Source: Candidatus Heimdallarchaeota archaeon
GTDB lineage: Archaea; Asgardarchaeota; Heimdallarchaeia; JABLTI01
Assembly: GCA_030614005.1 (NCBI GenBank)
Contig: JAUWKS010000011.1
Coordinates: forward strand, 1-32,000
DNA length: 32,000 nucleotides
Direction of reading: 5' to 3'
Positions 4,050 through 32,000 of the stretch are shown here, one piece after another. Every line of letters starts with the position of its first letter. The stretch's first letter is position 1. Under the pieces are notes generated by a model that was not told the DNA's origin, did no database searches, and saw only the letters and a program-made list of their open reading frames with translations. A program made the position numbers and the translations under genes.

Positions 4050-4054
4050 TGATT

Positions 4055-5295: not shown

Positions 5296-5297
5296 TT

Positions 5298-12977: not shown

Positions 12978-13096
12978 TGTGACAAATCCACCTGTTTCTA
13001 TCCGTAATGGTTAATAGGTTGCCAAACCTAGGAGAATGAAAACGTTTGCAAATATTAATTTTATGTCTTACTACTGTAATAAGAGAGAAAAAAGAA

Positions 13097-14233
13097 TCAA
13101 GCTGAGCTTTTAGGCTCAAGCTTTTCATAACCGAATCTGTCAAAAATAAAACTACATTCTTTATTCACTTTGGCAATTAATTCATCTGAAAAATTATACT
13201 TTCTAGGTTTGTAATCCTTATCTGTTTCGAGATATTTTTGCATGCCTTCTTTTGCTTCTAAAAATCCTTTAATTTTCAAATCAGAATACACTTTTTCCAT
13301 AGTTTCGAGAGGTTTGATAATAAAGTCCTCGTAGCGAATATACAAAATATTTTCTTTAGATATATCTTTTACATCATCATCTATTTTTTCAAAAAGTTCT
13401 TTGTAAATACCCAGAATATTGTTTTTGTATTCTTCTTCATTCCATGTTTGAAGTGAAAAAATACGTGAAGTATCTAAATGGAATTTTATTGAAGAAGCAA
13501 AGACTTCATACGGATTACGATATAAATGAATATACTTTGCTTTTGGATACATTTTATTCAAATGTTCCATCCGATAGGAATTAGCAGGGTTTTTTAAAAC
13601 CATTCTTTTATTATTATTCCTTAAAGCAACTTTTTTGATAAAGAATTCATAACGCTTTTTCCAGCGTTTCAAATCTTTGGGCTTAGCATCATCAAAAGAT
13701 TTGTAACTTGCATATGTTTTGAAATTTCTTGGAAAAATCATGCTATGAAAGTATCCGTATTTATCATACGCACCCAAAGAATGTTCTTCTTCTCCAGGTA
13801 AATCAGCATTGATTTTTATCTCATCCATCGGTCTTGTTTCCGGAAGAGAAGCAATAATCAATTTTCGAGTAAAATTTGGAAATGCCAAAAAGAACTGAGG
13901 AGCATACACTTCAATGTTTGATACTAATCCTTTGCTTTTATCTTGAGTAAAAAGATAATGCATAAGTGTTGTGCCACTTCTCCAATGTCCTACAATAAAA
14001 ATAGGATCTTCGGCTAATTTGTAATTGTTAACTTTGCGATTAAATCTTACTCTTTCAACAAAACGCAGAGGAGCTGTAATTAGAGTCAATGTAAATGCAT
14101 ACCAAAGTCTAGGCCAATATTTTATATGAACCCTAAATTTATTTGTCCAAAGTAAACGTAAAAGGTTACTTGTCGACCCACCGCCTAGTGGGCATCTGTT
14201 AATTATCCAATGATCTTTCAAAAATGAGTCCAC
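13097..14233 (-). CDS. PAPS-dependent sulfotransferase (Sulfotransfer_3 / Stf3-like), paralog B
   Basis: PIFIVGHWRSGTTLM, TRPMDEI...DLPGEEE, KNPAN, IHLYRNPYEVFAS. GTG start; same length (378 aa) as paralog A. Confidence 0.88.
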   Translation of the reverse strand: MDSFLKDHWIINRCPLGGGSTSNLLRLLWTNKFRVHIKYWPRLWYAFTLTLITAPLRFVERVRFNRKVNNYKLAEDPIFIVGHWRSGTTLMHYLFTQDKSKGLVSNIEVYAPQFFLAFPNFTRKLIIASLPETRPMDEIKINADLPGEEEHSLGAYDKYGYFHSMIFPRNFKTYASYKSFDDAKPKDLKRWKKRYEFFIKKVALRNNNKRMVLKNPANSYRMEHLNKMYPKAKYIHLYRNPYEVFASSIKFHLDTSRIFSLQTWNEEEYKNNILGIYKELFEKIDDDVKDISKENILYIRYEDFIIKPLETMEKVYSDLKIKGFLEAKEGMQKYLETDKDYKPRKYNFSDELIAKVNKECSFIFDRFGYEKLEPKSSA

Positions 14234-14723
14234 CTTAATTTCTAAAATAGATTGAATGCCAATTCATCCCTAGTAACTTTAGAATGAATATAATTGTTTT
14301 GCTAAAAAAAGTCCGTTCTCTACAATATTTCTGTTTTTTTTAAAAATATTGAAAGAAATAATTTTAAAATTGAAAAGATGGAAACTATTATTGAAATTAT
14401 TGGTTGATTAGGGGAAGAAACTAGCATTGAAAAAGATTATTTGCTTGAAATAGATTTTTGATATCAAGTTTTTCAAATTGAAACTGTTTTGTGATAACTC
14501 ATTATGATTTTAATGCATCAAATATTCTGATAAATCTAACAATTGAGTAATTTATCGAGTATAATAGATTTTGAGGAATGCATAACAAAAGATACACAGC
14601 TTTTGATTTACTTTTTATAACAAAGGATTTGAATTTATAAAAAAATATTTTTAGAAAGACATTAAATTTTTTTCCAAAATTGAAGTGCCATTTAGAAAAA
14701 GAAGAAAGAAATAATTCCTACTC

Positions 14724-15275
14724 TTAGCTTGAGTTGGGAATCAATTTTTCTTTTTCGAGATAAGCAATGATTATCTTAATGCTTTCTTCTACTGTTTCAT
14801 CTTCAGTATTACAGATGATTTGAGGATTAGGTGGAGCTTCGTAAGGATGGCTTACACCTGTGAAATCCTTTATTATGCCAGCAAAAGCTTTTTCGTACAA
14901 TCCTTTAACATCTCTTCGAGCACATTCTTCTACAGAAGCATTTACGAAAACTTCAATGAAGGGAGCATTTTCTCCATTTGCTTCTTTACGAGCAGTTTCT
15001 CTTGCAGCAATAAATGGAGAAATGAAAGATACTAGAGTTGCTACTCCATGTTTTGCTAACAATGTCGTAACAAAGGTTATTCTTTCAATATTCAAATTTC
15101 GATCATCTACTGAAAAGCCGAGATCTCTTGTAAAGGTCTTTCTAACGATATCTCCATCAAGCCTTTGCACTCGCAAATCTCTTTCAAGGAGCACTTTTTC
15201 TAATTCAACAGCAATTGTTGTTTTGCCCGAACCGGATAGGCCGGTAAACCATAATACAAAACCTGGGTCGTTCAT
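14724..15275 (-). CDS. cysC: Adenylyl-sulfate (APS) kinase
   Basis: VLWFTGLSGSGKTT P-loop, LDGDIVR, DRNLNIERI, FISPF...RE, RDVKGLY...FTGV..PYEAP. Confidence 0.95.
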   Translation of the reverse strand: MNDPGFVLWFTGLSGSGKTTIAVELEKVLLERDLRVQRLDGDIVRKTFTRDLGFSVDDRNLNIERITFVTTLLAKHGVATLVSFISPFIAARETARKEANGENAPFIEVFVNASVEECARRDVKGLYEKAFAGIIKDFTGVSHPYEAPPNPQIICNTEDETVEESIKIIIAYLEKEKLIPNSS

Positions 15276-15309
15276 TAATTTTCACTCTCAATAATTTTTT
15301 AATTTCATT

Positions 15310-16464
15310 TTACTTTACAAATAACTCCTTTTGTTTTAAGAGGTATTCAGCAACTTCAGGACGCATATATTCAGTTAACCCGTCAAGTTGTTTATCGACA
15401 ATCATTTTTCTGATTTTTTTACCGCTAATCATTTTTTGATATTCAGTGCCATCATGTGGACAAGTGTAATCATTCACTACTCCACCACATTTATCACATT
15501 TGAAGAATGAACGGAAGCAAATTGGTTTAATTTCCAAATCAGGGAATTTATCAAAAATAGCGTGTGCATCAAATGGACCATAATAGCTACCAACACCTGC
15601 ATGGTCTCTTCCGACGATGAAATGACTGCAACCAAAATTCTTTCTCATAATAGAGTGGAAAATTGCTTCTTTTGGTCCACCGTATCTCATTCTCGTTCTG
15701 AGAATACCCATCATTGTTCTATCTTTGCGATAATAGTTGTCCATAAGAACATTGTAGGCACCTAAAATAACTGGATCAGTGAAATCATTTGTTTTCTTTT
15801 TACCAATGATTGGGTTAACAAATAATCCATCTACCATTGTTAGTGCGGCTTTCTGTACGTATTCATGCCCTAAATGAGGAACATTTCTAGTTTGAAAACC
15901 TACAACAGTCTTCCAACCCTTTTTCTCAAACAGAGCCCTTGTTTGTTGTGGATAGAAAGTGTATTCTTTAAAATCAGTGATAAAAGTGTTTACAAGATCA
16001 ATTTTACCTGCAAATAAATTATCATTGGAATTAAGTACTTTTTCTACACCAGGATGAGCTGCATCGAGGGTTTGAAAAGAACTTTCTGCGATAGCTTTCT
16101 TCTCGTGCTTATAGATTTGTTCTAGATGTAAAACAGCAATAATTTTTCCTTCACTATTCGTTAAGGCAATATCATCACCTTCTGAATAGTTTTTTGCAGT
16201 AACATCATTGACATCGAATGTAATAGGAATGGTCCATGCTAAATCATTAACAAGTCTGTCATTTTTGATGATGGATTGAACATCCTCTTCCACCATAAAA
16301 CCTTCGAGAGGACTAAAAACACCGTGTGCGATGTTATAAAGATCCTCAATGACTTCATTGTTTACCTCTAGTTTTGGCATAGATTGAAATTCCGATTCAA
16401 TTCGAGCTTTATCTTTTTCTGGTAAGACTTTATCAGTTAGCTTATTACCGTGTGGGTTAATCAT
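15310..16464 (-). CDS. sat: Sulfate adenylyltransferase (ATP sulfurylase, homo-oligomeric Sat type)
   Basis: MINPHG start with a GGAGA SD upstream, FSPLEGFM, FQTRNVPHLGHEY, MRYGGPKEAIFHSIMRKNFGCSHFIVGRDHAGVG and C-x2-C...CPH zinc site. The 94-aa N-terminal extension in the ORF track is not supported. Confidence 0.95.
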   Translation of the reverse strand: MINPHGNKLTDKVLPEKDKARIESEFQSMPKLEVNNEVIEDLYNIAHGVFSPLEGFMVEEDVQSIIKNDRLVNDLAWTIPITFDVNDVTAKNYSEGDDIALTNSEGKIIAVLHLEQIYKHEKKAIAESSFQTLDAAHPGVEKVLNSNDNLFAGKIDLVNTFITDFKEYTFYPQQTRALFEKKGWKTVVGFQTRNVPHLGHEYVQKAALTMVDGLFVNPIIGKKKTNDFTDPVILGAYNVLMDNYYRKDRTMMGILRTRMRYGGPKEAIFHSIMRKNFGCSHFIVGRDHAGVGSYYGPFDAHAIFDKFPDLEIKPICFRSFFKCDKCGGVVNDYTCPHDGTEYQKMISGKKIRKMIVDKQLDGLTEYMRPEVAEYLLKQKELFVK

Positions 16465-16663
16465 TATTGACAATCTCCAGTAATTTAATTGAAATATAGA
16501 TTTAATTTCAATAACTAGTAATAGATGAAATATCCAAGGTGCTTTTTCAAGCTTGGACAATTTGAATGCCTGTGTCCGAATAAAGAAATTTAACCTCAAA
16601 TTAATAAGTGTATTGAAGAATATTTCAAATTGAGTAAACATCTCACCAAAGAAAAAAGCTCCT

Positions 16664-18829
16664 TTAGGATTTAGAGAAATTTTTACTGATAGATTTAATT
16701 TTCTGTAAATAATCACTCTCGAGATGGTTTGAAGATTTTTTAACAATCTCTTTTTTATATTGAGATTCTTTAATGCGTTGCTTCTTATGGTGTAAAATTA
16801 GCTGAGCCCATAATAACCCTAAAGCTGCTTTTTCTTCAATTTGTTGATTGTTACTATACTCTTTACTGAAAAGAACTAATTCATCAGCGAATTTTATAAC
16901 TGATTTCCAATCATCTGAATTAGTGGTTAGAATTAGAAAAGAATAGCCTTCTGCTAATTTTACTTGTATATTTTCATCAAAGGAATATCTATTTGCTATG
17001 CTTTTCAAAATTTCTAGTAGTTCTAACTTTCTCATTTCGACTGTTGAAGTAAATGCAAGAATCCCTTCATTTATTGCTCGAGCAATTTTCAAAGGAATTT
17101 TTTCGTCTCTGAGGCTTAATCTATTTGCTGTTTCAATTTCAATCTTTAATTGTTCAAGAAGAATTGTTTCCCCTCGTCTGGCTAAGAAGCTAATAAGACG
17201 TGTAATATTACTTACAAAATTAAACTGTTTATAATATTTAGAGAGAAATTTCAATCCCATCTTATTGATGATTTCTAAAAAGAATACTGTTCCAACTCCA
17301 TCCAATCTTGCTGCTCTAAGTGTTGTTGCTCGAATAAGTGGGTTTACTAATTCCACAATGAGTTTTTTCTCAGACATATTTGAGACGTGATCAAATATTT
17401 CTTCTTGAGAAATGTTCAATTTAGCACTATTGTAACCATGCATGCCTACAGAAAAAATGAGTGCTTTTGTATGCAATAATTGATTAATAAGAAATCTATT
17501 ATCATTAAGCTCAAGTTGCTTTAAAAATTCCAATTGCTCTAAAATTCTTTCTTCTTTTGTAGCGGCTAAAGTTAAATCGTCATCTCTAGACGTTTCATCT
17601 TGAATTTCATCAATAGTTTTTCTGTCAGCAGGTATTTGTCCTGTTTCCCGCAAATGTTCTTTAATATCATTATTATAATCAATTACTGCATCAATTTCCT
17701 CAACGATGCTGAATGGTTTGTTCTTTTCTAATTTTGTGTGTAGTTCCTTGGTTAATTTTTCAATATCCTCAATATCATTAATATCATAAGAAAGCTTAAG
17801 CCCTCTTCGACCTATTTTCAGAGCATCATATTCCTCTATTCGCATCATTTTTTGAATTGCAAGCAGCTTTCCTTCAGCAATTTTATATTGCTGATTCTTG
17901 TCTCGTTCTACACGTAAATCGATTACAATAGGAAGATCAGCTAATGTCTCCCAAAGATTATATTTATCCAATGTAATGCTTAATCGATATACATCCCTGT
18001 AAAATTCACTCTTATCTTTTCTCAATAATTTCTCCGAGTCTTGAAGTATCTCTCTGATTCCGGCAATACAATCCTCACAAGGTTTCTCTGTTTGATTATT
18101 TATACGCGCCATATTTAGAACTGCGTTGATGACTCCCTCTTGAAAAATGTCATCTATATCTTCTCCTAAAATTAAACGTAGTCCATTACTATTTTGATTT
18201 TCTGTGCTTTCACATTTGTGGCCACTAATTGAGAAGCCTATAAACTTCTGATAAAGATTTTTTATTGTTGAGCAATCCTGCTCATCAAGATAGAATAGTG
18301 CATTCAAGTATACTTTCGCATTTAGCAATTGAATGGCATCAATTAGAGGATGGAGAGCCCATTTCTCTTTTATCATAGAGATAATTTCTAGTATTTCATC
18401 ATCTTTTCCCCAACGAATAAGTTCTATGGATGCTCGAGATATCGCATCGTAAATGGTTTTATTTTCGGGTATTTTAACGATAATATCAATAAAGTCAGTA
18501 AAAAGATCAATTCGTCTTGTATCACGAATGTTGTAGCTATCAATTAGAAGCTTGTAAATTGCTCGAGAGAGAATATTTACTAACTCACTAAATTCTTTGG
18601 ACCACCAGGCAATTTCAACCAACTGATTCAAAATAACTCGTTCAGAGGTAACATCACCCTGTTCACTAAATGATTCCATTATTTCAAAGAGAATATTAGC
18701 AAATTCCTCTGTTTTCTTAGTGTCTTCTTTCAAGTCAATTTTACTTCTGCATTGTAGAATATATGCAAAGATATCTTCTTTAGACATCAGTAGATAGCTT
18801 TTTTTCAGCTGTTTAAGTTCCTTTGACAT
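16664..18829 (-). CDS. Large all-alpha-helical (solenoid-like) hypothetical protein
   Basis: About 720 aa of amphipathic helices with no TM segment and no nucleotide-binding motif. ATG at 18829 chosen because AGGTGA lies 8 nt upstream. Confidence 0.7.
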   Translation of the reverse strand: MSKELKQLKKSYLLMSKEDIFAYILQCRSKIDLKEDTKKTEEFANILFEIMESFSEQGDVTSERVILNQLVEIAWWSKEFSELVNILSRAIYKLLIDSYNIRDTRRIDLFTDFIDIIVKIPENKTIYDAISRASIELIRWGKDDEILEIISMIKEKWALHPLIDAIQLLNAKVYLNALFYLDEQDCSTIKNLYQKFIGFSISGHKCESTENQNSNGLRLILGEDIDDIFQEGVINAVLNMARINNQTEKPCEDCIAGIREILQDSEKLLRKDKSEFYRDVYRLSITLDKYNLWETLADLPIVIDLRVERDKNQQYKIAEGKLLAIQKMMRIEEYDALKIGRRGLKLSYDINDIEDIEKLTKELHTKLEKNKPFSIVEEIDAVIDYNNDIKEHLRETGQIPADRKTIDEIQDETSRDDDLTLAATKEERILEQLEFLKQLELNDNRFLINQLLHTKALIFSVGMHGYNSAKLNISQEEIFDHVSNMSEKKLIVELVNPLIRATTLRAARLDGVGTVFFLEIINKMGLKFLSKYYKQFNFVSNITRLISFLARRGETILLEQLKIEIETANRLSLRDEKIPLKIARAINEGILAFTSTVEMRKLELLEILKSIANRYSFDENIQVKLAEGYSFLILTTNSDDWKSVIKFADELVLFSKEYSNNQQIEEKAALGLLWAQLILHHKKQRIKESQYKKEIVKKSSNHLESDYLQKIKSISKNFSKS

Positions 18830-18927
18830 TGAGGTATTCACCTAATATAAAACACAGAGGATTATGAATCCCATTTTGCTTATCAACTTATCAGTAAACA
18901 TCAATAAATCTCTTTTTCTTAGTGCAT

Positions 18928-20085: not shown

Positions 20086-23000
20086 ATGAGCTCAAAATCT
20101 AAAAATAAATTGAAAGTAATATTAAAATCAAAAGAATCATTTCTAATAATTTGTTTGATACTTATCCCATTAGTACTAAATAATCAATATTCGAACAATT
20201 ATACTTCAGCCCATTCACCTGTATCGAGTCCAATGGAAATATTCTCCTTATGGAATGATACTATTCCCTTGATTGATGGTTTTGTTGATTTCAATTCTAC
20301 AAGCTCAGCTAGTGAATGGACAACAGCAGCAATTTATGATTTATTTAATACTGATCAAGATCCATCCTCAAAATTGCTTTTAAAAAATGATGACACTAAT
20401 CTCTATGTTGGAATAGATTGTATAAGCTATACAACAGAATCGCCTGCAAGTACATGGGGAATGGGCGTATACCTGGATCGTGATCATAACGGACTGCTAA
20501 GTCAAAATGACCGAGCAATATATTTTAAATCAAATGCAACAGATGAGCTAGTAATAATCTATCAATATAGCGCTCAGAACAATTTTTGGAAAGAAATAGA
20601 AACTGGTTATCTTGAGGACAACCTCACATCCTCGCACGTTGTAATAGATACTGATTTCAAGGACTCAGTTTTCGAAGAGCAACCTCATAGACAATATGAA
20701 ATAGTTATCCCATTATCATTAATGCAAGTAGCCCCCGGGCAAATAACTGGCATTGCTTTCGAGGTTTTTGAAAATTTATTTGGTGATGACGAGGAAAATA
20801 CTTGGCCATTTATTGAAACAACACCAAGAGATATAAGATTAAATGCTGGTCTTTGGGGCGATTTATTCATTGGGAAAAATTCTGGTGATTATTACACTAA
20901 ATATTCTATCGAAGACAATTTTAACATTAAAGATTCTGCAATCGGTCCAAATAATGGTACCTTTATGACTACTGCTGATATTAATGGAGATGGAGATTTA
21001 GAGCTGATTATTAGTTCAAACCGAACTGTTTCTTCTGATAATAATTTATTAGCGATTTATGATACAATCGATGGAGAATTAGTTAAAATATGGTCTTCGT
21101 GGTTTTCTGTTCATCAGAATAAGATGTTTTTAGTGAAGCAAATTGTTGCTTACGATTTCGATGAAAACGGACAAGATGAATTATATCTTGCAGGTGAAGA
21201 TAGTAGAATTCTAAGGTTAACAGAATGGGATGAAGAGATAAATGATTTTGATAAATCAGATTATGCTGTTACTCATACTTCAAGTTTAACAGGATATCTT
21301 GCAATTGGAGAGGCAACAAATATGGGTGTAATGAATTTAGTATTTGGAGATCAAAATGGAAAAGTCAATGTCTTGGAATATATTAATGCAACAGGTCTTT
21401 TTGAAAAAGATAAAAAATCACCTATTACTCCAATTGTTTCTGGTTATACTGTTGAAAAAATTCATGCAGTAGAAATTGCCGATGTAGATGCTGACGGTAG
21501 ATATGAAATATTAATGAATTTACAAATAACTTCAGACGATTCAATTTCAACAACTCGGTTACAGATCTATGAGAGAACTATAGCGAAATACCTGGAAAAC
21601 ATAGAAGATGATTTGCCATCAGCTTCATCTATTTTAACTGAAGATAATTTTGGTCATACAATCATTGTTGCTGATGTTGATAATGACTTGGAATCAGAAA
21701 TAGTTTTAGTAGGACAAAATTATTTGAGAATATTGAGTGCAAATTCTTTCCTAGATGCTGAACCACATTTAGAATTTAAAATTAATGATGAAGTAAATTC
21801 TCCATTCATGGGTGGTGGTGCATTAGTCTATGATGTGGATGATGACTCATATAATGAATTGGTTTTTAGTTGTAATAACGGCACTTTATTTGTAATCAAT
21901 ATTACAGATTCAGGAAGCAACTCATTATCTTACAATATAAAGTGGTCAAGTGATATTGGCTCTTCCTCAGGGAAAAGAAAGTCAATACTCGCTTATGATT
22001 TGGATGAGGATACAGAAACAGAAATAATATTCGGTGATAACTTTGGTCAAATAATGACTTTAGGTAAATCAGCTATTCCGGAAATAAGAATTCTCTCACC
22101 ATCATCAGGTTCAACTGTTTCAACATCATCTGTTCTAATTACTTGGGAAGGATTAGATGATTTTGCTATTCACCATTATGATATTTTTGTTGAAGGCAGT
22201 ATCCAAGGTAGAGTAAATGGCAGTCAAACTGCTTTTATTGTTTCTTTGCCATCATCAAGTAATACAATTGAAATTATTTGCTACGATGTTAACGGTAAGA
22301 GTGCTTCTGATTCAATTATTGTTAGTCAATCTACAACTGCACCACAAATTTACATTACAAGCCCTGAAAATTATTACCAAACAGCTTCTAATGACATTAG
22401 AATAGAATTCGATTATTCTGATCCAAATGATGATTTTGATCATTATGAAGTATGGATTGATGAAGCTCAATTTGGTGGAGATTATGCTCCATCTACTACT
22501 TTCGTAGATTTAACTTTGAATACCGATGGTGAACATAACATAACTGTAGTTGGTATTGATTCTAAGTTAAATAGAGGAAAAAGCTCAATATTTGTTACAG
22601 TTGATACAACTGCACCCTTATTGACAATTACTAATCCAATAAGCGGTTCAGCAATGAAACTGACAACAATTGAGCTGCAATGGACTGCATCGGATGCTCT
22701 AAGTGGATTATCACATTTTGTTGTGAAAAAAGATGGTTTTGTTTATGCAACCACATCAGCACTTTCACAATTAGTGTCATTGGATTCAGATAAAATTTAT
22801 GATCTACAAGTTACTGCTTACGATCAATTAGGAAATTCAAGAATAGATTCTATCACAATAGTGAAGGATACAGCAAAACCAACCGTTTTAATCACCGATC
22901 CAATTGATGGTTATACAACCTCTTCAGATCAATTAACAATAAATTGGGAATCAGAAGATAATATCGGTGGCACGGGTATTCATCATACTGAAGTAATTGT

Positions 23001-25614
23001 CAATCAGCAAACAAAATATTCCAGTACAGGTGCAACAACAGCTACCTTTTCAGTTGAGGATGAAGGTGTAAAAGATATCATCGTTACAACATATGATAAA
23101 GCGGGAAATATTGATACAGATCACATCATTGTTTATGTGGATAGTACTGTTCCTTATCTCGAAATTCTTTCACCAGAAACCGGCTTCATAACTGGTTTGG
23201 ATTATTTTATCGCTAATTGGTACAGCAATGATACTGGTTCAGGAATAGCTGAATACAATATCTATGTTGACAATGTATTAATAGAAACGATAAGTGATCC
23301 ATTAGTAACTACTACAATAGTACCATTGACCCTTGATCACACTTCCTCGATAATAATTAGTGTAGTTGATGTTTACGGTTATGTATTTAATGATACTATT
23401 TCTGTTACTCAAGATTCCACTCTCCCCTCAATTGCACTTATTACACCGCAAGCGAATTTCTCTTACATCTCTGACTCATTAATTTCCATTGAATGGGATG
23501 TAGCAAATATTCAAGATTTCATTTCATACTTCATATATGTTAATGAGACGCTTAATCAAACTATTAGCGATATTTCAACAAAGAATACTATTATTGATTT
23601 GGGAGCTATTCCGATAAATGAATATCCACTCTTTAATCTAACTATTGTTGTTCAGACCCTAAGTAACAATATTTCAGATACAAAATGGATCATTGTTGAT
23701 CAATCTATACCTTCAGTTACAATAATCACTCCGGCAAATTATACTACTTATTATCAAGATATAATCTATATTCAGTGGACAGCCAACGATCAGGGATCAG
23801 GTGTGTATAATTATAAAATTCTAGTAAATGGTCAATACCTTGAATTCTGCTCTTACGATAAAAATTATTATTATCTAATATTCAATGAAGAGGATGGAGA
23901 GCAATTAATAACCATTGAAGTATTCGATTTTGCTTCCAATAGAGCTACAAGCAACATTACACTTCTTTTGAATATCTTACTGCCTGAATATCAAGCAAAT
24001 ATTCCTACCATTTATTATACACAAGATGGTGACTTCCAATTTGATTTTACGGTGACAGACACGCAATCTGGTGTAAAGGGTTTAATTATGTTGTTAGATG
24101 ATGATGAAATAGTGAATGAGAACTATGAATTAGCAATTAGAAATGAATCATTTACTCTTTCATATGACTTTAATGAATCATCATTTACTGCATTAGATGA
24201 TAGTCATGAACTTGAAGTCGCAATACTTGACTTTTATAATCGTGAATTGATTCAATTATATATTATTAATATTGATACACAAAACCCAACAATTCTTCCA
24301 ACAATAACAGTTGATTCTGAATTACTAACTGCAGATGGATTAGAATTAGTAAATGGTAGCAAAGAGAGTCTCTTGTTCTTGGTAACTGTTACAGACAATT
24401 TTGGTATAGATAGAGTCACTTTAACTGTTGTAAGTGAAGATTCGACTGCAACATACGATATGATTGCTGAAACAGAAGAAGGACTTCAAGTTGTACATTA
24501 CTCTCTAAATTTAAGCATAGCTGATTTTGAAATAGGTGAATATACAATTATTTTCACTACATTTGATCTTGCAGGTAATAATCAAAGTTTATCATATAAT
24601 TTGGCTATTATTCCTATAGTAGAAATCCCGTGGTTCCAACAAGGAAATAATGCTATCTACCTATCCATAGGGATTGGTGGATTACTACTTATATCAACAA
24701 TGTTAGCTATAGGCGCTACAAAAGGACCCATTGCAAATAAAGATTGGAAAGAAGAAATTATTGCTGTTCTTTTTGTTAAGAAGACAGGATTAACTTGTGT
24801 TAGTGTTAATTATGTTCAGCAATTAATTCAGGAAGAACAATTAATTGGTGGAGCAATGATAGCAATCCAAAGTATGCTTACTGAAATTTCAGGAAGTAAA
24901 TTGAAAGGAACGATTGAAACTATGGAACTAGGTGATAGAACCATGTTTCTTTTCTTAGGTGAATATGGGATCAGTGTTTTAATGGTTAATCAAGTTAAAC
25001 CAATTCATAAGAAATTGCTAAAGAAATTCAATGACAAATTTGTTAAGAAATATTCTGTAGCATTAGAAAATCTATTCTTTGTAGATAGCACTTCTTTTCT
25101 TGGTAGTGAAAAACTTGTTGAAAAAATCTTTGGTCCAGTGAAGGAGATTACTCCAGAATCTGGAATTGCAAATCAATTGCAAACTATAATCGATGATATT
25201 AAACCAGAAGTAATCAGTATAATTGAAAAAGATAAGAAAGAATCAGATTTAATTCATGAAAGCGATTCTCCTATAGATCATTTAGTAAAACAATTATCTC
25301 GAGAATCAAATAGAAGTCTTACAAAAATAATAACTACTACTCCTGCAATAATAATTGCATTAGCTGAACAGAATTTTGATGAAGCAGAGACTCATTTACA
25401 ATCTGTAATTATGGATATTGAACTATTACGTCAACTAGAAAGAACGAATTTTGAGTTGCAGCTATTCATCGAAAATATGAGAACAATAACCAATGAAATA
25501 AGGGTAGCTATTGATGCTGGTCGGCAAAATGATACAACTAGACTAAGACAAGCAATCGAAAATTCAACTAGAATTTGGTTTGATGACATAGCTGAAAAAT
25601 GGTCTGATATCTAA
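20086..25614 (+). CDS. Giant single-pass surface receptor A: DOMON/CBM9-like domain, FG-GAP propeller, 9 Ig-like domains, TM, longin-like domain, helical tail
   Basis: N-terminal hydrophobic signal; IPLIDG...EW...KNDDTNLYVG...HRQYEIVIPL (DOMON/CBM9-like); seven DxDxDG-type repeats; nine ~90-100-aa repeats of the form P.i.I.sP...W...D..SGi..y.i.vng...i...D..GN; TM at ~24652-24717; cytoplasmic region with longin-type secondary-structure order. Confidence 0.85.
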   Translation: MSSKSKNKLKVILKSKESFLIICLILIPLVLNNQYSNNYTSAHSPVSSPMEIFSLWNDTIPLIDGFVDFNSTSSASEWTTAAIYDLFNTDQDPSSKLLLKNDDTNLYVGIDCISYTTESPASTWGMGVYLDRDHNGLLSQNDRAIYFKSNATDELVIIYQYSAQNNFWKEIETGYLEDNLTSSHVVIDTDFKDSVFEEQPHRQYEIVIPLSLMQVAPGQITGIAFEVFENLFGDDEENTWPFIETTPRDIRLNAGLWGDLFIGKNSGDYYTKYSIEDNFNIKDSAIGPNNGTFMTTADINGDGDLELIISSNRTVSSDNNLLAIYDTIDGELVKIWSSWFSVHQNKMFLVKQIVAYDFDENGQDELYLAGEDSRILRLTEWDEEINDFDKSDYAVTHTSSLTGYLAIGEATNMGVMNLVFGDQNGKVNVLEYINATGLFEKDKKSPITPIVSGYTVEKIHAVEIADVDADGRYEILMNLQITSDDSISTTRLQIYERTIAKYLENIEDDLPSASSILTEDNFGHTIIVADVDNDLESEIVLVGQNYLRILSANSFLDAEPHLEFKINDEVNSPFMGGGALVYDVDDDSYNELVFSCNNGTLFVINITDSGSNSLSYNIKWSSDIGSSSGKRKSILAYDLDEDTETEIIFGDNFGQIMTLGKSAIPEIRILSPSSGSTVSTSSVLITWEGLDDFAIHHYDIFVEGSIQGRVNGSQTAFIVSLPSSSNTIEIICYDVNGKSASDSIIVSQSTTAPQIYITSPENYYQTASNDIRIEFDYSDPNDDFDHYEVWIDEAQFGGDYAPSTTFVDLTLNTDGEHNITVVGIDSKLNRGKSSIFVTVDTTAPLLTITNPISGSAMKLTTIELQWTASDALSGLSHFVVKKDGFVYATTSALSQLVSLDSDKIYDLQVTAYDQLGNSRIDSITIVKDTAKPTVLITDPIDGYTTSSDQLTINWESEDNIGGTGIHHTEVIVNQQTKYSSTGATTATFSVEDEGVKDIIVTTYDKAGNIDTDHIIVYVDSTVPYLEILSPETGFITGLDYFIANWYSNDTGSGIAEYNIYVDNVLIETISDPLVTTTIVPLTLDHTSSIIISVVDVYGYVFNDTISVTQDSTLPSIALITPQANFSYISDSLISIEWDVANIQDFISYFIYVNETLNQTISDISTKNTIIDLGAIPINEYPLFNLTIVVQTLSNNISDTKWIIVDQSIPSVTIITPANYTTYYQDIIYIQWTANDQGSGVYNYKILVNGQYLEFCSYDKNYYYLIFNEEDGEQLITIEVFDFASNRATSNITLLLNILLPEYQANIPTIYYTQDGDFQFDFTVTDTQSGVKGLIMLLDDDEIVNENYELAIRNESFTLSYDFNESSFTALDDSHELEVAILDFYNRELIQLYIINIDTQNPTILPTITVDSELLTADGLELVNGSKESLLFLVTVTDNFGIDRVTLTVVSEDSTATYDMIAETEEGLQVVHYSLNLSIADFEIGEYTIIFTTFDLAGNNQSLSYNLAIIPIVEIPWFQQGNNAIYLSIGIGGLLLISTMLAIGATKGPIANKDWKEEIIAVLFVKKTGLTCVSVNYVQQLIQEEQLIGGAMIAIQSMLTEISGSKLKGTIETMELGDRTMFLFLGEYGISVLMVNQVKPIHKKLLKKFNDKFVKKYSVALENLFFVDSTSFLGSEKLVEKIFGPVKEITPESGIANQLQTIIDDIKPEVISIIEKDKKESDLIHESDSPIDHLVKQLSRESNRSLTKIITTTPAIIIALAEQNFDEAETHLQSVIMDIELLRQLERTNFELQLFIENMRTITNEIRVAIDAGRQNDTTRLRQAIENSTRIWFDDIAEKWSDI

Positions 25615-25636
25615 TTTTTCTCAAAAAAGAAATAAA

Positions 25637-25668
25637 GTAAAATGAAATATGTTTTATATTTCATTTAC
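25637..25668. terminator. Hairpin between the convergent receptor genes (putative bidirectional terminator)
   Basis: Perfect 11-bp stem AAATGAAATAT (25640-25650) / ATATTTCATTT (25656-25666) with a 5-nt loop, extendable to 13 bp with one bulge; T-tract after the stop at 25614. Confidence 0.6.
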
Positions 25669-28600
25669 TCTTCACTATTATCAATGCTATCATTGAGTGA
25701 ATCATAGTCGTTTTCATAGGATTCAACATGTTCTACTTCTTCTGTAGGAATAGTTTCAGCTAAGGTTTCAGTTGGATGCTCAGCGTTAGTTGATAATTCT
25801 TCAGAGTGTTCTCTGACTGGTTCCTCTGTAAAGGTAAAATCATTAGCATTTTGATCAGCCGATTCCTCTGTAGAGGGAGTTTCTCGACTATTTCTAAAAT
25901 CTTCACTTCTCGCACCAAAGTAACTTTCAACCATTAGGGGAGCAGCATCATAATCATTCAGATTAAGCATATCTTGTGCTAGAGTATGCTTATAGGTCAA
26001 TTCAAATTCAAGAATGAAATTTTTAAGCAAATCTTTCAAAATAGGCTTCGCTTCACTTACCAATAGGATAGCATTTCCAAAAATTCCAGAACAAACAAGA
26101 AGGCGTTTTCCTCCATATTCTATTGTTTGAACTTTCATTGTAACTTCTTCTTCACCTGTTATCTCTCCGAGAATGCCTACAATACCTGTTAAGGCACCTC
26201 CAAATAACTGCTCATCGGCGTATAAATCTTCAGCGTATTGAATATATGCAACAGTTAATCCTGTTTTGGTAACATAAGCAACAGCTTTAATAACATCACG
26301 CCAACCGCGATTTCCTCCTCTCTTACGGGCAACAACTGTTATGATTGTCGCTAATATGAGCATTAGTAGTAATCCCGCTGCACTTGGAATAACAATAGTA
26401 AAGAGATTATCCATTAACCATTGACTAGATCCACCTGGTGTAGTTGGAGGTGGTGTTGTGATAATTTGCTGTTGTTCAATAGAAACTACTAGCGAAAAAG
26501 ATTGTGACAAAGTATTGCCTGCATTATCTGTAATCAAAAATTGTATACTGTAAATTCCTGCAGAATAGTCATCAAAATTAACAGAGATGTCAAACACAAA
26601 GACAGTAGAAGTTGAATGCTCAGCATTGAATGCCATTTGATAGGAGAAAGTGTGATTTTCATTAGAAATGAGTAAATTGACTTGCTGGATTCCACTATTA
26701 TCAGTTGTTGACACAGTAAAATTATGTACATCAGTTCTATTTTCTGAAATTTCAATATTATATCCTGATGGACCTAATAGAGTGCTATCAATTATTGGAT
26801 TGAACAGATATGGATTTTCCTTATCTATAATAATATCAACTGTTGTAGTAGCACTTCGACCACCGCGGTCGTATATTGTTATCGTTAAATTGTGTTCATT
26901 TGAAGGCGCAACAAAGTCCACTTCTTCTACATTGACTATAACATCAAAAGGATCAACTCGATAACTTTCATTATAATTGATATAATAAACTATTTCTGAA
27001 TTATCAGCTAAAACAAATACTTCTTGTATCCCGGAACTAGGATTAGTAATTGATATTGTAACCGGGAAATTTGGATCATTAGTTATCACTGAAGCAGAAA
27101 TATCAAGAGTAAATTCAGGCTCAGAAGGGAAAAGATTGATGTAAATGGTAGAATTTATTGCATTACCAGCGAAATCTCGTCCTTCTAATATTATCATATA
27201 TACTCCATCTGTATAGCTTTCAACATCAATCTCTCTCACAGTAATCGTTTTATCCCAGCTGTCAATTAACGTATCGTTGACCCATAGTGTATAGCTACTA
27301 ATGTCTGAACCAATATCGCTTCCTGACCAAGTTATCACAACCGAATCATCAGAAATTGTTGCAAAATTTAAAGGAGAAATAATGGCTACTACTGGGTTCT
27401 TTAAATCAACAATAACATATTTTGTATCAAAAAATTGGTATTGTCCTCCAATAACTGCGACAACGGTAATATTCGCTATTGGATAGGTGTTTTCATCAAT
27501 TAAACCAAATACGTCTTCTAAATTGATAATAGTATCAAAAGTAGTATTTGTATATGGATAATCAGTTCCATTAATGAAAACGATGAACGAATCTGGATTG
27601 ATATTTATTGTTTCCCAAGTCACTTCTACAAATGTTGAGTTGATATAGCTAGATTCAGCTAATGGATTGGTTATAATTAATATTGGTGAAATAGGATCAT
27701 GCTCAACATTGATAGTGTCTTCTGCAAAATTATCTAGAAAATCAGTAACTCGAATAGTTATTGTATAAATTTTTGTTTCGGAAATATCGACAAAATATGA
27801 GTTAATTGTTGGATCTGTAAATGTTGCTACAGTAAAACTATCAACAATAACAACAATTTCTTTTATTCCTGAACCTATATCTGATGCATCCCAGAAAACA
27901 GTGACATTTTCTGCACTAGTTAAATAATTGTTCTCTGGAGAAGTAATAGTTACTTGAGGGTTAGATACATCATAAGCAATAATGAAATAATCACTGGCAA
28001 AGTTTCCAGCCATATCATAAGCAACTATTTTAACGTTATTTCCTCCTTCTTCAGTTAGAGTAATCGTATCATCTACTTCAGTAGAAGTATAGTTACTAAA
28101 TTGTTCACCATTTATTAAAACTTCAAAATAGTCTATACCACTTCCACTTGCAGTATCATTGCCATTCCATTCAATGAATACATCTGCTAAATCAGTAACA
28201 AACCAACCATCATCATTCACTGGATAACTTAAAGACTCTAATGAAACTGAAGGGTCAATAGTATCTCGAGTAACCTGAATTGAATCTGAACCTGTTTTGC
28301 CTAAAATATCATAGGCTAAAACTACCAAGGTATATTCTTTTTCAAAGGGAAGATCAACATCATAATATTTGGTTGTAGTATTTCCTTGCAGTTCTCCATC
28401 ACGATAGATTTCATAATAATCAATAGAGCTATGTTCATCGTATGCTGACCATTTGAGTTGGATCAAACTGCTACTTACAAAAGAATTATCTGCTGGAGAA
28501 GTAATAGCAATGACTGGACCTGTATTATCATATGTAACATAAATCATATCTTTTACTCTATCACTTCCATCTGTAGCAATTACAGTAATGTTCCAAGTAC

Positions 28601-31085
28601 CTTCTGAATCAAAACTAAAAGTATGTTGCAGTAGTGAAGTTGTTCCTTTATCTGTACCGTTAGCATATACTTCAAAAGTAAGATCATCTGATTGAGGGTC
28701 GTATGCATCCCAATAGATTGTAATAGATGATAGATCTGTCAAAAAACCATTTTCAGGACTTGTTATATCTATTGTTGGTGCACCGGCATTGTATATCACT
28801 GATCGACTGTCTGAATCAGTTTCACCTCGAATGTCTGTACAAACAATATTAACAACATTACTTCCTGATTCTAAAGGAATCACCGCGCCAGTTTGTGCTC
28901 CACCAACTCTTAAAGAAAGTTTGGCATTAATGTAAATATCATAGAAAACTATAGGCAAAGAGTCATTTGAGGTTTCCCACTCAAATAAAATGGTATTTTG
29001 ACCGGTAGTATAACCTTCAATTGGAGAAGTAATTGAAAAGGAGGGTAATTCACCCAAACCAAGAACAATTATTTGACCAAATTGGTCACCAATAAACGCC
29101 TCTTCTGCTCCATCTCCATCAATATCCAAGCCAATGATTGAACCTCTTTTACCAGGCATGGTACCTAAATCACCTTTCCATTCAGTGATAACAAATAAAT
29201 CTTCAATAGCATCATCAGGATTTAAATCAACGATTTGATATACAAAGGTAGTTCCATTATTACAACCAACAATTAATTCATTATACGAATCGCCATCAAT
29301 ATCAAAAACTCCTGCACCTCCACCCATAGATGGATATGTTTCATCATTGATATCAAGCACTAATGGAATTGTTGTATCATTAAATGTGTCATGACCGAAA
29401 ATTTTCAAGTAGTCTTTTCCGACAATAATTGTTTCATGTATTCCATCATTGTCAACATCAGCAACAATAATCGTATGACCAAAACTATCAAAGGTATTTG
29501 AATGTGAACTTATTGGTAAATCATCTTCATATCCATATGTTGGGTCTGCAGTTGGATTATCATAAATTGATGTGCCTGTAAGTTCAAAAATCTGTAAACC
29601 AGTTGATGAGACTGAATCATCAGCTGAAAACTGGGATAACAGTAGAATTTCATTTACGTTCCAGCTATCATGATCCGACTCAGCAATTTCTACTGCATGA
29701 ATTTTTGTAATTGATGAGCTATTGATATCTGGTGCAATATACCAAGCATCATTCCATTGCGTAAATGGTTTGAATTCTTTATCATATTCAAGAATAGTAA
29801 AAGTTGTATCGCTATCGCCAATGAGAATATTAGCATTACCATCATTGGTAGCATCACCTATAGCAATATACCCCATTGTATTGTAAACATTATCAAATGC
29901 TAAATCTAGTGTGTCGAAGTCTCCGGAAACATCATTCCAATCTTTTAATCTCAATATTCGAGAATCTTCTGTGCTTGCCATATATATTTCATCTTCTCCA
30001 TCACCTGTGAAGTCATAACAAGCAATGCCTTGTGTTAGAAAGAGGCTATCCTTATGGGTTGAAGTCCATGAGTTCCAAATTTGAGTTATTTCTCCATCGA
30101 CAGTATCATAAATAGCAATTAAATTAGTGTCCACTGAAACAGTTCGATTTGAGCTGACAATTAATTCTAAATCACCATCTCCGTTAATATCACCTGATGA
30201 TAGAAAGGTACCGTTATTGGTGCCAATGGCTCCATCTTTTATGTTAAAATTATCTTCAATAACATATTTGGTGTAAACACCGTTTTCACCAAGATAAATA
30301 TCTCCCCAGCAATTCGCTGTTGTCCTAAAAATAGTTGAAGAATCATCAGTATAGGGCCAAGTAATACTCCCCGTACCAGAAGAATATATATTCGTAGCAG
30401 CAAAACCAATTCCGAAAAGATCACCTGGATTTTTATTCAGGGTGTCAAGATCAATTTTGAATTCATATTGTCTGTGAGAGTTTGTTGAGTCAAAAAATGA
30501 TTTTGAATAATCCATGTCTACAGTGACATTGTAAGTTGGAATTTCCACACCAGTTGTATCTGTAGCTAACAAATCCCATTGCCCATTACTTAATCCTCTA
30601 TAAATATCAACATGTAAAGTATCATTTACCTCATTCATGACAGAAACATATCTATCACTTGTGTCTAAAATACCATTATGATTTAAGTCAAAGACTATTC
30701 CTGCTCCCCAAGCAGTAGCTGGATCTTCAACTTCATAGTCAATCATATCGAATCCAATATAGAGATATGAATCATCATTTTGTAGGAAAACTTTACCTCT
30801 AGGACTTTCCAAATTATCATACATATCATAAACAGCTGCTGAAGCCCATTCAATTGAAGCATCTGTACCATTGAATTCTATTTTGCCATCTAGGTTCGGT
30901 AGAATCGTACTATTATAGAGCGAATAGATTTCTTTTGGATATGCAAGAGGTGAATGTCCTCTAATTGGTGTATAATTGAAATTATAGATTGCGATAAATA
31001 ATGAAGCAGTTAATAGTACTATCAAGAATAATTTAATACTACCCTTCTTAAATTTACTAATATGAAAATGGGGATTTATAGGCAT
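25665..31085 (-). CDS. Giant single-pass surface receptor B, paralog of A, with an acidic disordered C-terminal tail
   Basis: Same domain order as receptor A; a PPPTTPGG linker before the TM helix (~26331-26408); ARKR stop-transfer; longin-like domain at ~25914-26297; E/S/T-rich tail. Confidence 0.85.
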   Translation of the reverse strand: MPINPHFHISKFKKGSIKLFLIVLLTASLFIAIYNFNYTPIRGHSPLAYPKEIYSLYNSTILPNLDGKIEFNGTDASIEWASAAVYDMYDNLESPRGKVFLQNDDSYLYIGFDMIDYEVEDPATAWGAGIVFDLNHNGILDTSDRYVSVMNEVNDTLHVDIYRGLSNGQWDLLATDTTGVEIPTYNVTVDMDYSKSFFDSTNSHRQYEFKIDLDTLNKNPGDLFGIGFAATNIYSSGTGSITWPYTDDSSTIFRTTANCWGDIYLGENGVYTKYVIEDNFNIKDGAIGTNNGTFLSSGDINGDGDLELIVSSNRTVSVDTNLIAIYDTVDGEITQIWNSWTSTHKDSLFLTQGIACYDFTGDGEDEIYMASTEDSRILRLKDWNDVSGDFDTLDLAFDNVYNTMGYIAIGDATNDGNANILIGDSDTTFTILEYDKEFKPFTQWNDAWYIAPDINSSSITKIHAVEIAESDHDSWNVNEILLLSQFSADDSVSSTGLQIFELTGTSIYDNPTADPTYGYEDDLPISSHSNTFDSFGHTIIVADVDNDGIHETIIVGKDYLKIFGHDTFNDTTIPLVLDINDETYPSMGGGAGVFDIDGDSYNELIVGCNNGTTFVYQIVDLNPDDAIEDLFVITEWKGDLGTMPGKRGSIIGLDIDGDGAEEAFIGDQFGQIIVLGLGELPSFSITSPIEGYTTGQNTILFEWETSNDSLPIVFYDIYINAKLSLRVGGAQTGAVIPLESGSNVVNIVCTDIRGETDSDSRSVIYNAGAPTIDITSPENGFLTDLSSITIYWDAYDPQSDDLTFEVYANGTDKGTTSLLQHTFSFDSEGTWNITVIATDGSDRVKDMIYVTYDNTGPVIAITSPADNSFVSSSLIQLKWSAYDEHSSIDYYEIYRDGELQGNTTTKYYDVDLPFEKEYTLVVLAYDILGKTGSDSIQVTRDTIDPSVSLESLSYPVNDDGWFVTDLADVFIEWNGNDTASGSGIDYFEVLINGEQFSNYTSTEVDDTITLTEEGGNNVKIVAYDMAGNFASDYFIIAYDVSNPQVTITSPENNYLTSAENVTVFWDASDIGSGIKEIVVIVDSFTVATFTDPTINSYFVDISETKIYTITIRVTDFLDNFAEDTINVEHDPISPILIITNPLAESSYINSTFVEVTWETININPDSFIVFINGTDYPYTNTTFDTIINLEDVFGLIDENTYPIANITVVAVIGGQYQFFDTKYVIVDLKNPVVAIISPLNFATISDDSVVITWSGSDIGSDISSYTLWVNDTLIDSWDKTITVREIDVESYTDGVYMIILEGRDFAGNAINSTIYINLFPSEPEFTLDISASVITNDPNFPVTISITNPSSGIQEVFVLADNSEIVYYINYNESYRVDPFDVIVNVEEVDFVAPSNEHNLTITIYDRGGRSATTTVDIIIDKENPYLFNPIIDSTLLGPSGYNIEISENRTDVHNFTVSTTDNSGIQQVNLLISNENHTFSYQMAFNAEHSTSTVFVFDISVNFDDYSAGIYSIQFLITDNAGNTLSQSFSLVVSIEQQQIITTPPPTTPGGSSQWLMDNLFTIVIPSAAGLLLMLILATIITVVARKRGGNRGWRDVIKAVAYVTKTGLTVAYIQYAEDLYADEQLFGGALTGIVGILGEITGEEEVTMKVQTIEYGGKRLLVCSGIFGNAILLVSEAKPILKDLLKNFILEFELTYKHTLAQDMLNLNDYDAAPLMVESYFGARSEDFRNSRETPSTEESADQNANDFTFTEEPVREHSEELSTNAEHPTETLAETIPTEEVEHVESYENDYDSLNDSIDNSEE

Positions 31086-31234: not shown

Positions 31235-32000
31235 TTACTTTTTCCTGAGAGCCATTCTCACTTCTTCCATTTTCTCTCGAGGTTGATTTATCATTATTGC
31301 CATTTCTGTTGTGGTTTTTGCGTTTGGTTCAACGTAAGTATAGTTGATTATCCAATTTAATAGCATCATCACAAGATCAACAGAGATAGCCGATCCTGGG
31401 TATCCATCTGGAATAATTATTGCTAGTGATTGTTTTCCTTTTGTTACTCGACAATAAGGTTCATCAAAAGAGCTGTTTGCAACAAATTGATTTTTAACTG
31501 GATTACGTGTCCACAAACCACTGCCACTAGTAGCTTCAATTACATTATTTTCTCTGGAACCATCTAAGCCTATGTCAACCATTAACCCTGAACCACAAGG
31601 CATTTTTCTTGCTGTTTTGTTGTCCAGAGTGATTATCGCTCTAATGATGGAACTTCCTGGTAGGGTTAAATAAGTCATTTCAACATTTAATCCTTTAAGG
31701 TATTCTTTGTCATTGGTGATAATCCAAGATGATTTAATTCCCTTCCATAATCCTTCATCAACTATTTCAGTTGTTGTATCTTCTGGTTTGTAAAATGGAT
31801 TGTTTGCTCCGAAATGGATAACTGCAGGTTGCATACCACCAATATTATGAGTGAAGAAGAATCTAGGTTGCAATTCAGGGAAATTATCAATGAGGAATGT
31901 TTTCCCTTTTGAATCCTTTAGTTTGAGTAAATTTCCACCGATATCTTTAGGAACAACAAATGAAAGCGAACCGTTTGAGATTTCGTAGATCTTTCTTTCT
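31235..32000 (-). CDS. C-terminal part of a large hypothetical protein (beta-sandwich, possibly galactose-mutarotase-like); 5' end outside the window
   Basis: The frame stays open past the track's TTG at 31873 to the window edge (ERKIYEISNGSLSFVVPKDIGGNLLKLKDSKGKTFLIDNFPELQPRFF...). The I.NG.L...V.P..GG.L..L pattern resembles the first strands of mutarotase-like folds. Confidence 0.65.
   Translation of the reverse strand, partial: ERKIYEISNGSLSFVVPKDIGGNLLKLKDSKGKTFLIDNFPELQPRFFFTHNIGGMQPAVIHFGANNPFYKPEDTTTEIVDEGLWKGIKSSWIITNDKEYLKGLNVEMTYLTLPGSSIIRAIITLDNKTARKMPCGSGLMVDIGLDGSRENNVIEATSGSGLWTRNPVKNQFVANSSFDEPYCRVTKGKQSLAIIIPDGYPGSAISVDLVMMLLNWIINYTYVEPNAKTTTEMAIMINQPREKMEEVRMALRKK

Follow-up and report, generated by a model that had tools for sequence, protein, structure and literature searches.

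In eukaryotes the longin fold is a docking site for small GTPases and for vesicle coats. Asgard archaea possess dozens of small GTPases together with longin and roadblock proteins. Dimers of longin and roadblock domains bind small GTPases in TRAPP, Mon1-Ccz1, Ragulator and MglAB (PMC10933270). In the papers covered here, Asgard longins are described either as soluble proteins or as fusions with GTPases, TRAPPC3 or two-component domains, the last being NPRL2-like longin domains joined to two-component signalling domains (Liu et al., 10.1101/2020.10.19.343400), and one review stresses that the longins regulating Rag GTPases do not associate with membranes themselves. Among surface proteins, integrin alpha subunits consist of a seven-bladed FG-GAP propeller with Ca-site-like loops, immunoglobulin-like (Ig-like) domains, one transmembrane (TM) helix and a short GFFKR-type tail. 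Here we describe two neighbouring genes, ORF A and ORF B, encoding giant proteins with a propeller head outside and a predicted longin domain inside the cell. They lie in a 32,000-nucleotide (nt) window, positions 1 to 32,000 of contig JAUWKS010000011.1 (assembly GCA_030614005.1) of a Candidatus Heimdallarchaeota archaeon.

The single parts of these proteins, an FG-GAP propeller, Big_7 repeats and an Asgard longin, are all of known kinds. For their receptor-type chain, an ectodomain-TM-longin protein, no description was found in the Asgard literature searched, of which our coverage was incomplete. On the reading that we favour, for which we regard the case as evenly poised, the A/B-type giants couple the surface to cytoplasmic switch machinery by way of a longin docking platform.

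Architecture of the two giant proteins

Both ORFs were found at exactly the coordinates given by a first-pass annotation of the same DNA. ORF A (20086–25614, plus strand) encodes a type-I giant surface protein of 1842 amino acids (aa), and ORF B (25665–31085, minus strand) encodes one of 1806 aa; they belong to clades A and B, respectively, of the family described below. The two proteins align end to end over ∼1729 residues with 36% identity and are collinear paralogs, as had been proposed.

Protein A starts with a basic N-terminus and a hydrophobic segment, which is a signal peptide or an N-terminal anchor (20086–20214, plus strand as for all parts of A; aa 1–43). This is followed by an all-beta N-terminal domain (20215–20883, aa 44–266), a seven-bladed beta-propeller of the FG-GAP/VCBS type with DxDxDG-like loops (20884–22074, aa 267–663), a stalk of nine Ig-like repeats of ∼92 aa and Big_7 type (22075–24621, aa 664–1512), a single TM helix (24652–24720, aa 1523–1545) and a cytoplasmic longin-fold domain (24727–25137, aa 1548–1684) whose fold was modelled on the paralogous domain of B. 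Protein B has, on the minus strand, an N-terminal signal or anchor (30957–31085, aa 1–43), an all-beta N-terminal domain (30282–30956, aa 44–268), an FG-GAP propeller (29049–30281, aa 269–679), nine Ig-like repeats (26463–29048, aa 680–1541), a single TM helix (26328–26405, aa 1561–1586) and the cytoplasmic longin-fold domain that was modelled (25911–26324, aa 1588–1725).

The signal and the single TM helix claimed earlier were borne out by hydropathy, which showed an N-terminal hydrophobic segment plus one C-terminal TM helix in both proteins. Pfam detected FG-GAP and FG-GAP_3 at about aa 290–660, four or five Big_7 repeats and Glucodextran_B in A/B. An iterated hidden Markov model started from one repeat counted nine Ig-like repeats of ∼92 aa in every one of the genome's four paralogs, which agrees with the count of nine in the first-pass annotation.

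The claim that A and B correspond domain for domain stands for head, stalk, TM helix and longin domain. Beyond the longin domain the C-termini differ. A ends in a conserved helical tail domain (25273–25611, aa ∼1730–1842; final residues IWF..IAEKW), which had been overlooked and is absent from B. This further domain of ∼115 aa, with the near-invariant end AIE.AS.IW(F/L)..I.EKW, is also found in clades C and D (L020:11860-12324; L021:5617-6156), and in the own genome of the window it is confined to the three proteins A, C and D. No usable Atlas match was found for the helical tail of A, and a search of the PDB gave only designed helical bundles. Clade B proteins end in a short or acidic, variable tail; in B itself it is acidic and of low complexity (25668–25910, minus strand, aa 1726–1806), its length varies within the clade, and it lacks the helical domain.

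A longin fold is predicted for the cytoplasmic domain

The cytoplasmic parts of the giants are 221–297 aa long. The longin domain comes directly after the TM helix, with a juxtamembrane W-(K/R)-(E/D) motif. Alignment A1 contains 43 copies of this ∼135-aa domain. AlphaFold2 modelled aa 1588–1725 of B with a predicted local distance difference test (pLDDT) score of 85.3 and a predicted template modelling (pTM) score of 0.82. The model has a short helix of four residues (model residues 8–11), followed by elements in the order b-b-a-b-b-b-a-a: strands at 12–19 and 24–29, a helix at 38–56, strands at 65–70, 73–79 and 83–89, a helix at 94–110 and further helices. The C-terminal helices (94–136) are long and conserved, with pLDDT 90–96.

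The model was compared exhaustively with 48,161 PDB representatives by VIA-align. The top match was the longin domain of VAMP7, solved with a delta-adaptin fragment (4afi_B; Z 13.1, root-mean-square deviation [rmsd] 2.8, 117 residues aligned). It was followed by the longin domain of a lokiarchaeal Roadblock-Longin protein (8yqg_B; Z 12.2, 128 aligned), Sec22 with Sec23/24 (3egd_C; Z 11.9) and CPLANE (7q3d_C; Z 11.8), and these matches cover the whole model from about residue 5 to 138. Other longins of GTPase platforms scored slightly lower, Mon1-Ccz1 at 10.8 and TRAPP at 10.3–10.4. The same order of elements is shared with VAMP7, Sec22, Bet5/Trs23 (TRAPPC1/C4), Mon1-Ccz1, Fuz/Intu and 8yqg, over 112–128 aligned residues at Z 10–13 and rmsd 2.7–3.8. 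The claim of a cytoplasmic longin-like domain was thus confirmed at the level of the predicted structure, with longins heading the PDB ranking at Z 12–13 over the whole domain.

Roadblock domains have the core sheet and the central helix in common with the tail, as in MglB-MglA, LAMTOR/Ragulator-Rag and the Asgard structures 9jue, 7f8m and 7yh1. Their matches reached Z 10–11.7 at rmsd 2.3–2.8, and Foldseek with the B tail listed MglB, LAMTOR2, coatomer zeta/delta, TRAPPC1/4 and Sec22, roadblock proteins having E values of about 1e-4. The model does not fit a Roadblock/LC7 domain of the MglB kind, in which the elements run a1-b1-b2-a2-b3-b4-b5 and no longin-type pair of C-terminal helices follows. 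It has no full N-terminal helix, it has the longin-type C-terminal helices, and the roadblock alignments stop at residues 105–117, omitting most of the helices after residue 94.

Sequence searches were far less informative. The tail profile found Bet5 as its best PDB sequence (E 0.018). Among the 43 tails, curated families matched in two cases each: Sybindin (best E 0.014), Fuz_longin_1 (0.025) and Robl_LC7 (1e-4). Pfam gave nothing significant for the isolated N-terminal domain (first ∼270 residues) or the isolated cytoplasmic parts of A and B, and no Synaptobrevin or SNARE match in the latter at E values up to 10. Membership of the longins rests on fold and not on sequence, since every curated longin family considered (Longin, Sybindin, Sedlin_N, Fuz_longin_1, SRX, Clat_adaptor_s) stays below its threshold.

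The longin fold belongs to a wider profilin/PAS/GAF-like group, and the tail could in principle be a cytoplasmic sensor that binds a small metabolite and reports it to the ectodomain, acting inside-out. A weak PAS_GdpP signal was seen on the tail region of A (E 0.068) and in two of 43 members (best E 0.0017), and fusions of NPRL2-like longins to two-component domains are on record (10.1101/2020.10.19.343400). These PAS_GdpP matches lie far below Pfam thresholds, however, and all top structural matches are longin or roadblock domains and not PAS or GAF. We regard such a sensor as very improbable.

The domain differs from known longins in its position, C-terminal to a TM helix beneath an ectodomain of ∼1500 aa. 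The order in VAMP7, Sec22 and Ykt6 is the reverse, with the longin domain first, then the SNARE coiled-coil and a C-terminal TM helix, and no SNARE motif was found in the giants. Ragulator is also a membrane-tethered GTPase platform, but its tether is the lipidated LAMTOR1 and not the TM helix of a receptor itself.

Membrane topology and glycosylation

Lys plus Arg averaged 3.4 in the 15 residues after the TM helix and 0.45 in the 15 residues before it, and the excess was seen in 33 of 33 full-length members. In these members a basic stretch comes ahead of the N-terminal hydrophobic segment. N-glycosylation sequons numbered 25–37 in the ectodomain (1.4–2.1 times expectation) and 0–3 in the cytoplasmic part. 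Because the positive-inside rule holds in every full-length member and sequons are enriched only in the ectodomain, the longin domain is placed inside the cell, as the first-pass annotation had it and not outside; by sequence it begins ∼10 residues from the membrane. The giants are probably N-glycosylated single-pass surface proteins. Architecture, topology and fold together bear out the full chain of ectodomain, TM helix and longin domain.

The head and its relation to integrin alpha

AlphaFold2 modelled residues 36–672 of A from 42 homologs with pLDDT 87 and pTM 0.82. An all-beta domain at model residues ∼16–226 is followed by 27–28 strands at ∼230–630, which fits seven four-stranded blades. 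FG-GAP in B scored 30.8 bits (cut-off 22.1) and FG-GAP_3 in A 38 bits (cut-off 26.9). Seven calcium-binding repeats had been described earlier; DxDxDG-like loops, searched by regular expression, occur in most blades and number 4–7 per paralog, and the remaining, degenerate blades differ between paralogs.

The most conserved stretch between A and B is the first ∼70 residues of the propeller (20893–21102, plus strand; 30066–30275, minus strand), with 77% identity against 52% for the whole propeller. It is above the regional average in family-wide conservation as well.

The layout had been compared with that of integrin alpha, and a direct homolog or ancestor of integrin alpha, in an alpha/beta-like heterodimer, would share several of its features. 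FG-GAP exceeds its Pfam cut-off, the propeller is seven-bladed, Ig-like legs and a single TM helix follow, and against the PDB, where the A head matched seven-bladed propellers at Z 25–30, the integrin alpha6, alphaM and alphaL propellers aligned at Z 26.0–26.8 (7cec_A, Z 26.8, 338 residues). The best PDB matches were other proteins, however: the EPTP propeller of LGI1 (Z 30.1), BBS2 (29.8), ITFG2 (28.3) and BBS9 (28.2), and integrins stood level with or below LGI1, BBS2/9, ITFG2 and WD40 propellers. The likeness is real at the level of the FG-GAP family and not specific to integrins, since non-integrin propellers score equally or higher. The nearest predicted structures were prokaryotic, namely bacterial propellers of the FG-GAP/VCBS/PQQ type, and ITFG2, bacterial VCBS/FG-GAP proteins and LINKIN/ITFG1 are other FG-GAP propeller proteins of the kind of the giants' head.

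Other differences add to this. The legs are nine Big_7/Glucodextran_B-type repeats in place of the thigh, calf-1 and calf-2 domains of integrin alpha, and Integrin_alpha2 was not among the Pfam matches of A/B at E values up to 1. An alpha-I domain is lacking. Integrin alpha has a short GFFKR-type tail, whereas the giants have a cytoplasmic part with a longin domain, plus the helical domain in A, C and D. A and B are both alpha-like, and the giants are limited to one archaeal family. Integrin beta (PF00362) had no match in the own genome, which is 90% complete, and control genomes were equally silent, so that this search is uninformative. The integrin-alpha layout stands in generic form only, in line with the earlier caution that resemblance need not mean integrin ancestry, and descent of this kind is hardly credible and largely refuted. 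The Asgard family called integrin-like in PMC9258230 was considered and set aside as a different protein, which resembles integrin beta4 and adjoins FtsZ/tubulin.

The N-terminal domain had been called DOMON/CBM9-like. Its all-beta nature was seen in the model of the head, but the label itself is weakly supported. Neither CBM9_1 nor DOMON matched A or B at the curated Pfam threshold, and a profile of the domain found nothing relevant among PDB sequences. Language-model searches gave as leads a cluster in which 11% are CBM9_1 carriers (0.92) and Glucodextran_C (0.91). The result lists of fold searches with the two-domain head model were filled with propellers and are uninformative on this domain. 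A CBM9/DOMON-like domain is a weak lead.

Four old paralogs in one Asgard family

The own genome, assembled into 126 contigs (3.6 Mb, 90% complete), encodes four giants with a longin tail: A, B, C (contig 103, 1847 aa) and D (contig 75, 1863 aa). Database homologs of ∼1720–1890 aa come from metagenome-assembled genomes (MAGs) that carry the label Candidatus Heimdallarchaeota or "Asgard group", and their annotation goes no further than hypothetical, VCBS-repeat or Ig-like protein. In a tree of 47 full-length proteins, clades A (15 members), D (11), C (11) and B (7) and one small clade were separated with SH-like support of at least 98. After midpoint rooting, B groups with C and A with D, so that A and B fall on opposite sides. 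The A/B pair is old, since these convergent neighbours are not each other's closest paralogs. A recent duplication or gene conversion was rejected as the origin of the pair, A and B sitting in different deep clades.

Giants of more than 1700 aa were found in 11 of 11 genomes of the window's own family, and none turned up in the other Asgard genomes that were sampled. As judged by these sequences, the giant layout is found only in one Heimdall-group Asgard family, as four old paralogs.

The retained convergent pair of the first-pass annotation is real in part. Within the genus, four other genomes keep the arrangement, namely G005, G008 and G009 (gaps of ∼46–65 nt) and G010 (gap of ∼420 nt), and in another MAG the A and B homologs have adjacent locus tags. 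G007 departs from it, and the pair is half of a family of four paralogs. Contigs in the remaining genomes are too short for the pairing to be judged.

In G008 (L044:3-2264, G008:C11) a third giant with the same tail, truncated where the contig ends, directly precedes the A ortholog in tandem, so that three family members occur at this locus. The B ortholog of G010 (L022:8668-12624, G010:C7) has 1318 aa (open frame 1350) compared with ∼1780–1810 elsewhere. It lacks the N-terminal domain and most of the propeller, which could be due to truncation, frameshift or assembly error.

Within clades, the longin domain (51–71% identity) and the propeller (52–57%) are the best conserved parts, and the stalk is the least conserved (33–58% across Ig1–Ig9). 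Between clades longin identity is 39%, which indicates that each paralog keeps its own longin version. By its sequence conservation the family has the pattern of a conserved binding head with a paralog-specific conserved inner module, and not that of a hypervariable adhesin.

The longin tail in other Asgard membrane proteins

A search of 1.8 billion representatives with a single tail sequence gave only 50 matches. The notion of a rare domain was however dismissed, since the profile of alignment A1 matched 298 of 300 sampled Asgard genomes at E ≤1e-5, mostly with many copies each. Outside the giants the tail ends proteins of 350–800 aa, including MFS-like multi-pass proteins and a NosD-domain protein. 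The copies have in common a juxtamembrane Trp and a GG(A/F)..(G/A)I...L.EI helix. These profile matches show the longin domain of the giants to be one member of a phylum-wide tail module that is carried by many kinds of membrane proteins.

VAMP7 and Sec22 longins are recognised by AP-3, Hrb and Sec23/24. By analogy the tail might be a sorting tag read by coat- or adaptor-like proteins, which would steer its carriers into or out of vesicles or protrusions. Its occurrence on many unrelated membrane proteins is as expected of a tag, and the best structural matches, VAMP7 and Sec22, are cargo-sorting longins. In a cultured member of the Heimdallarchaeia, internal vesicles are lined with the cell-surface coat (10.1101/2025.11.06.686947). 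The fold does not discriminate between sorting and a GTPase platform, however, since the longins of GTPase platforms come within only ∼1–3 Z units of the best matches. Moreover, the Pfam scan found no SNARE motif, and vesicle traffic in this organism is an assumption. A sorting tag therefore strikes us as rather improbable.

Paired carriers of the tail were seen in another Asgard family as well. G219 (L019:1003-4519, G219:C13) has tandem pairs of ∼555-aa MFS-like multi-pass proteins, each with a longin-like tail, and similar tandem MFS-like pairs occur in G203, G193, G280 and G084. Pairing of tail carriers may be a recurring theme.

Three carriers of a distant copy of the tail are encoded on contigs 81, 64 and 59 of the own genome (L005:712-1848, L006:1-2130, L007:1495-2247). 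They are, in this order, a multi-TM protein of 378 aa, a large single-pass protein and a soluble protein of 250 aa. The single-pass protein has an open frame of 909 aa (the last 709 aa in the locus); its repeats are of the FG-GAP and TSP3-like kinds, and it also has an acidic linker and a helical tail.

Pairing of the longin domains and possible function

According to the reading that we favour, the head would bind an external ligand, for example a glycan or the surface of another cell. The membrane-tethered longin domain would pair with a second longin, either of its own kind or of another paralog. Together the two would offer a small GTPase, its regulator or a coat-like adaptor a place to dock at the inner face of the membrane, and would thereby link surface events with the cytoplasmic switch machinery, in one direction or the other. 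On A, C and D, the helical tail would be a second docking element, absent from B.

Complex prediction for the longin domains of A and B gave a score of 0.36, the best control being 0.01, which is graded as weak support. Contact agreement between runs was at least 57% and partner pLDDT at least 73. Of 78 solved complexes, 51 reached the mark, as did two of 108 mismatched pairs; at 0.60 or under, only five of those 78 reached it, together with all four mismatches that passed. The pass may reflect likeness only, since solved longin and roadblock dimers exist. The A/B heterodimer suggested earlier is weakly supported.

Several observations weigh against coupling to a switch of this kind. The predicted A-B longin interface has weak support, and the prediction does not separate heterodimer from homodimer. 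A and B, being convergent, are not co-transcribed, and in G007 the gene that follows B is unrelated, with no A beside it. No GTPase, roadblock or other longin gene was found beside A, B, C or D by gene-context search, and the genomic context gives no partner, as the conserved neighbours are only a GH38 mannosidase, a GNAT-domain protein and a DAGK-like kinase. The own genome has ∼44 Ras/Arf-like loci, none of them beside the four giants, so that gene context lends no support to the proposed coupling to a GTPase. Longin domains also act without GTPases, for example in SNARE sorting. No curated longin family reached the Pfam threshold on the tails of A and B, where only noise was seen at E values up to 10. 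On the outer side, the CBM9-like label is weak, CBM9_1 having matched three of 36 family members (best E 5.5e-4). DNA of the A/B locus occurs in marine-sediment and cold-seep metagenomes, and no RNA datasets carrying it were listed.

Several of these points suit a simpler role, in which the giants are structural proteins of a surface coat or of adhesion and the longin tail, with no switch protein, only clusters or anchors them laterally beneath the membrane by self-association. The long Ig stalk, the many sequons and the scarcity of cysteines are typical traits of surface glycoproteins in archaea. One cultured Heimdallarchaeia member is covered by an amorphous protein coat and has no S-layer (10.1101/2025.11.06.686947), self-association of a longin is known from the title of 8yqg, no signalling genes were found near the giants, and the neighbours related to glycans, GH38 and a sulfation cluster, are in keeping with a coat. 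A mere anchor, however, needs no domain whose within-clade identity of 51–71% equals or exceeds that of the head. MFS-like and multi-TM proteins, which are not coat proteins, carry this tail too, and the four paralogs stay distinct across the whole family. We consider a purely structural role unlikely.

The favoured reading has a more far-reaching form, which seems possible to us though doubtful. In this form the giants would be true outside-in/inside-out receptors. Binding of a ligand to the propeller would change the pairing of the longin domains and recruit a Rab/Arf/Rag-like GTPase or a coat-like adaptor; an asymmetric A-B pair, to which only A brings the helical tail, would be one example. 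The TM-longin tail would then be general Asgard wiring and a precursor logic for Ragulator, TRAPP and longin-SNARE platforms.

The giants offer a testable physical link from the Asgard cell surface to eukaryote-like internal machinery. Their ∼135-aa tails can be cloned as baits for the first membrane-proximal partners of the Asgard GTPase and trafficking machinery, and the proteins themselves are candidate identities for the long surface densities and the coat seen by cryo-electron tomography; from nine Ig repeats plus the head we estimate a stalked density of roughly 40 nm. Should the tails prove to bind GTPases or adaptors, longin platforms anchored in the membrane would be older than eukaryotes.

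Intergenic hairpin and neighbouring genes

The convergent stop codons of A and B are 50 nt apart, and this gap contains the shared hairpin reported earlier. It is AT-rich (25637–25669, given without strand), with an inverted repeat of 11 bp and a loop of 5 nt at 25640–25666 (core arms 25640–25650 and 25656–25666). The folding z values are modest (−2.4/−2.7). In G009 the orthologous gap also has a hairpin, which differs in sequence (z −4.9/−3.5) and has T-runs after it. A scan of the A/B gap for bacterial-type terminators gave no sites, and Rfam and tRNA scans of the window gave nothing. The hairpin is probably part of ordinary termination from both directions.

Upstream of B on the same strand (31235–31999, minus; L024:235-6588 = G000:C68:31235-37588) lie genes for a 1085-aa protein, which has an N-terminal GNAT domain and Ig-like parts, and for a 938-aa GH38 alpha-mannosidase. 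The order of the two genes is kept in the own genome, G009 and G010, and these genes may form a conserved neighbourhood for glycan processing or share an operon with B.

A cluster for sulfate activation and transfer was found at 11841–16746 on the minus strand. It consists of ATP sulfurylase with a PUA_2 domain (15310–16746), APS kinase (14724–15275) and two sulfotransferases of 378 aa (11841–12977 and 13097–14233), and no reductase is present in the window. From its gene content, the cluster could sulfate surface glycans or lipids.

The ORFs at 708–1820, 2502–4031, 6202–7038 and 16664–18841 had no Pfam match. At 4046–5906 on the plus strand, a 239-aa ORF corresponds to the first half of DUF1616 and a 202-aa ORF to the second, with a 177-aa ORF that has no Pfam match between them. 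A 539-aa protein with a bacterial TSP3 repeat is encoded at 7130–8749 on the minus strand.

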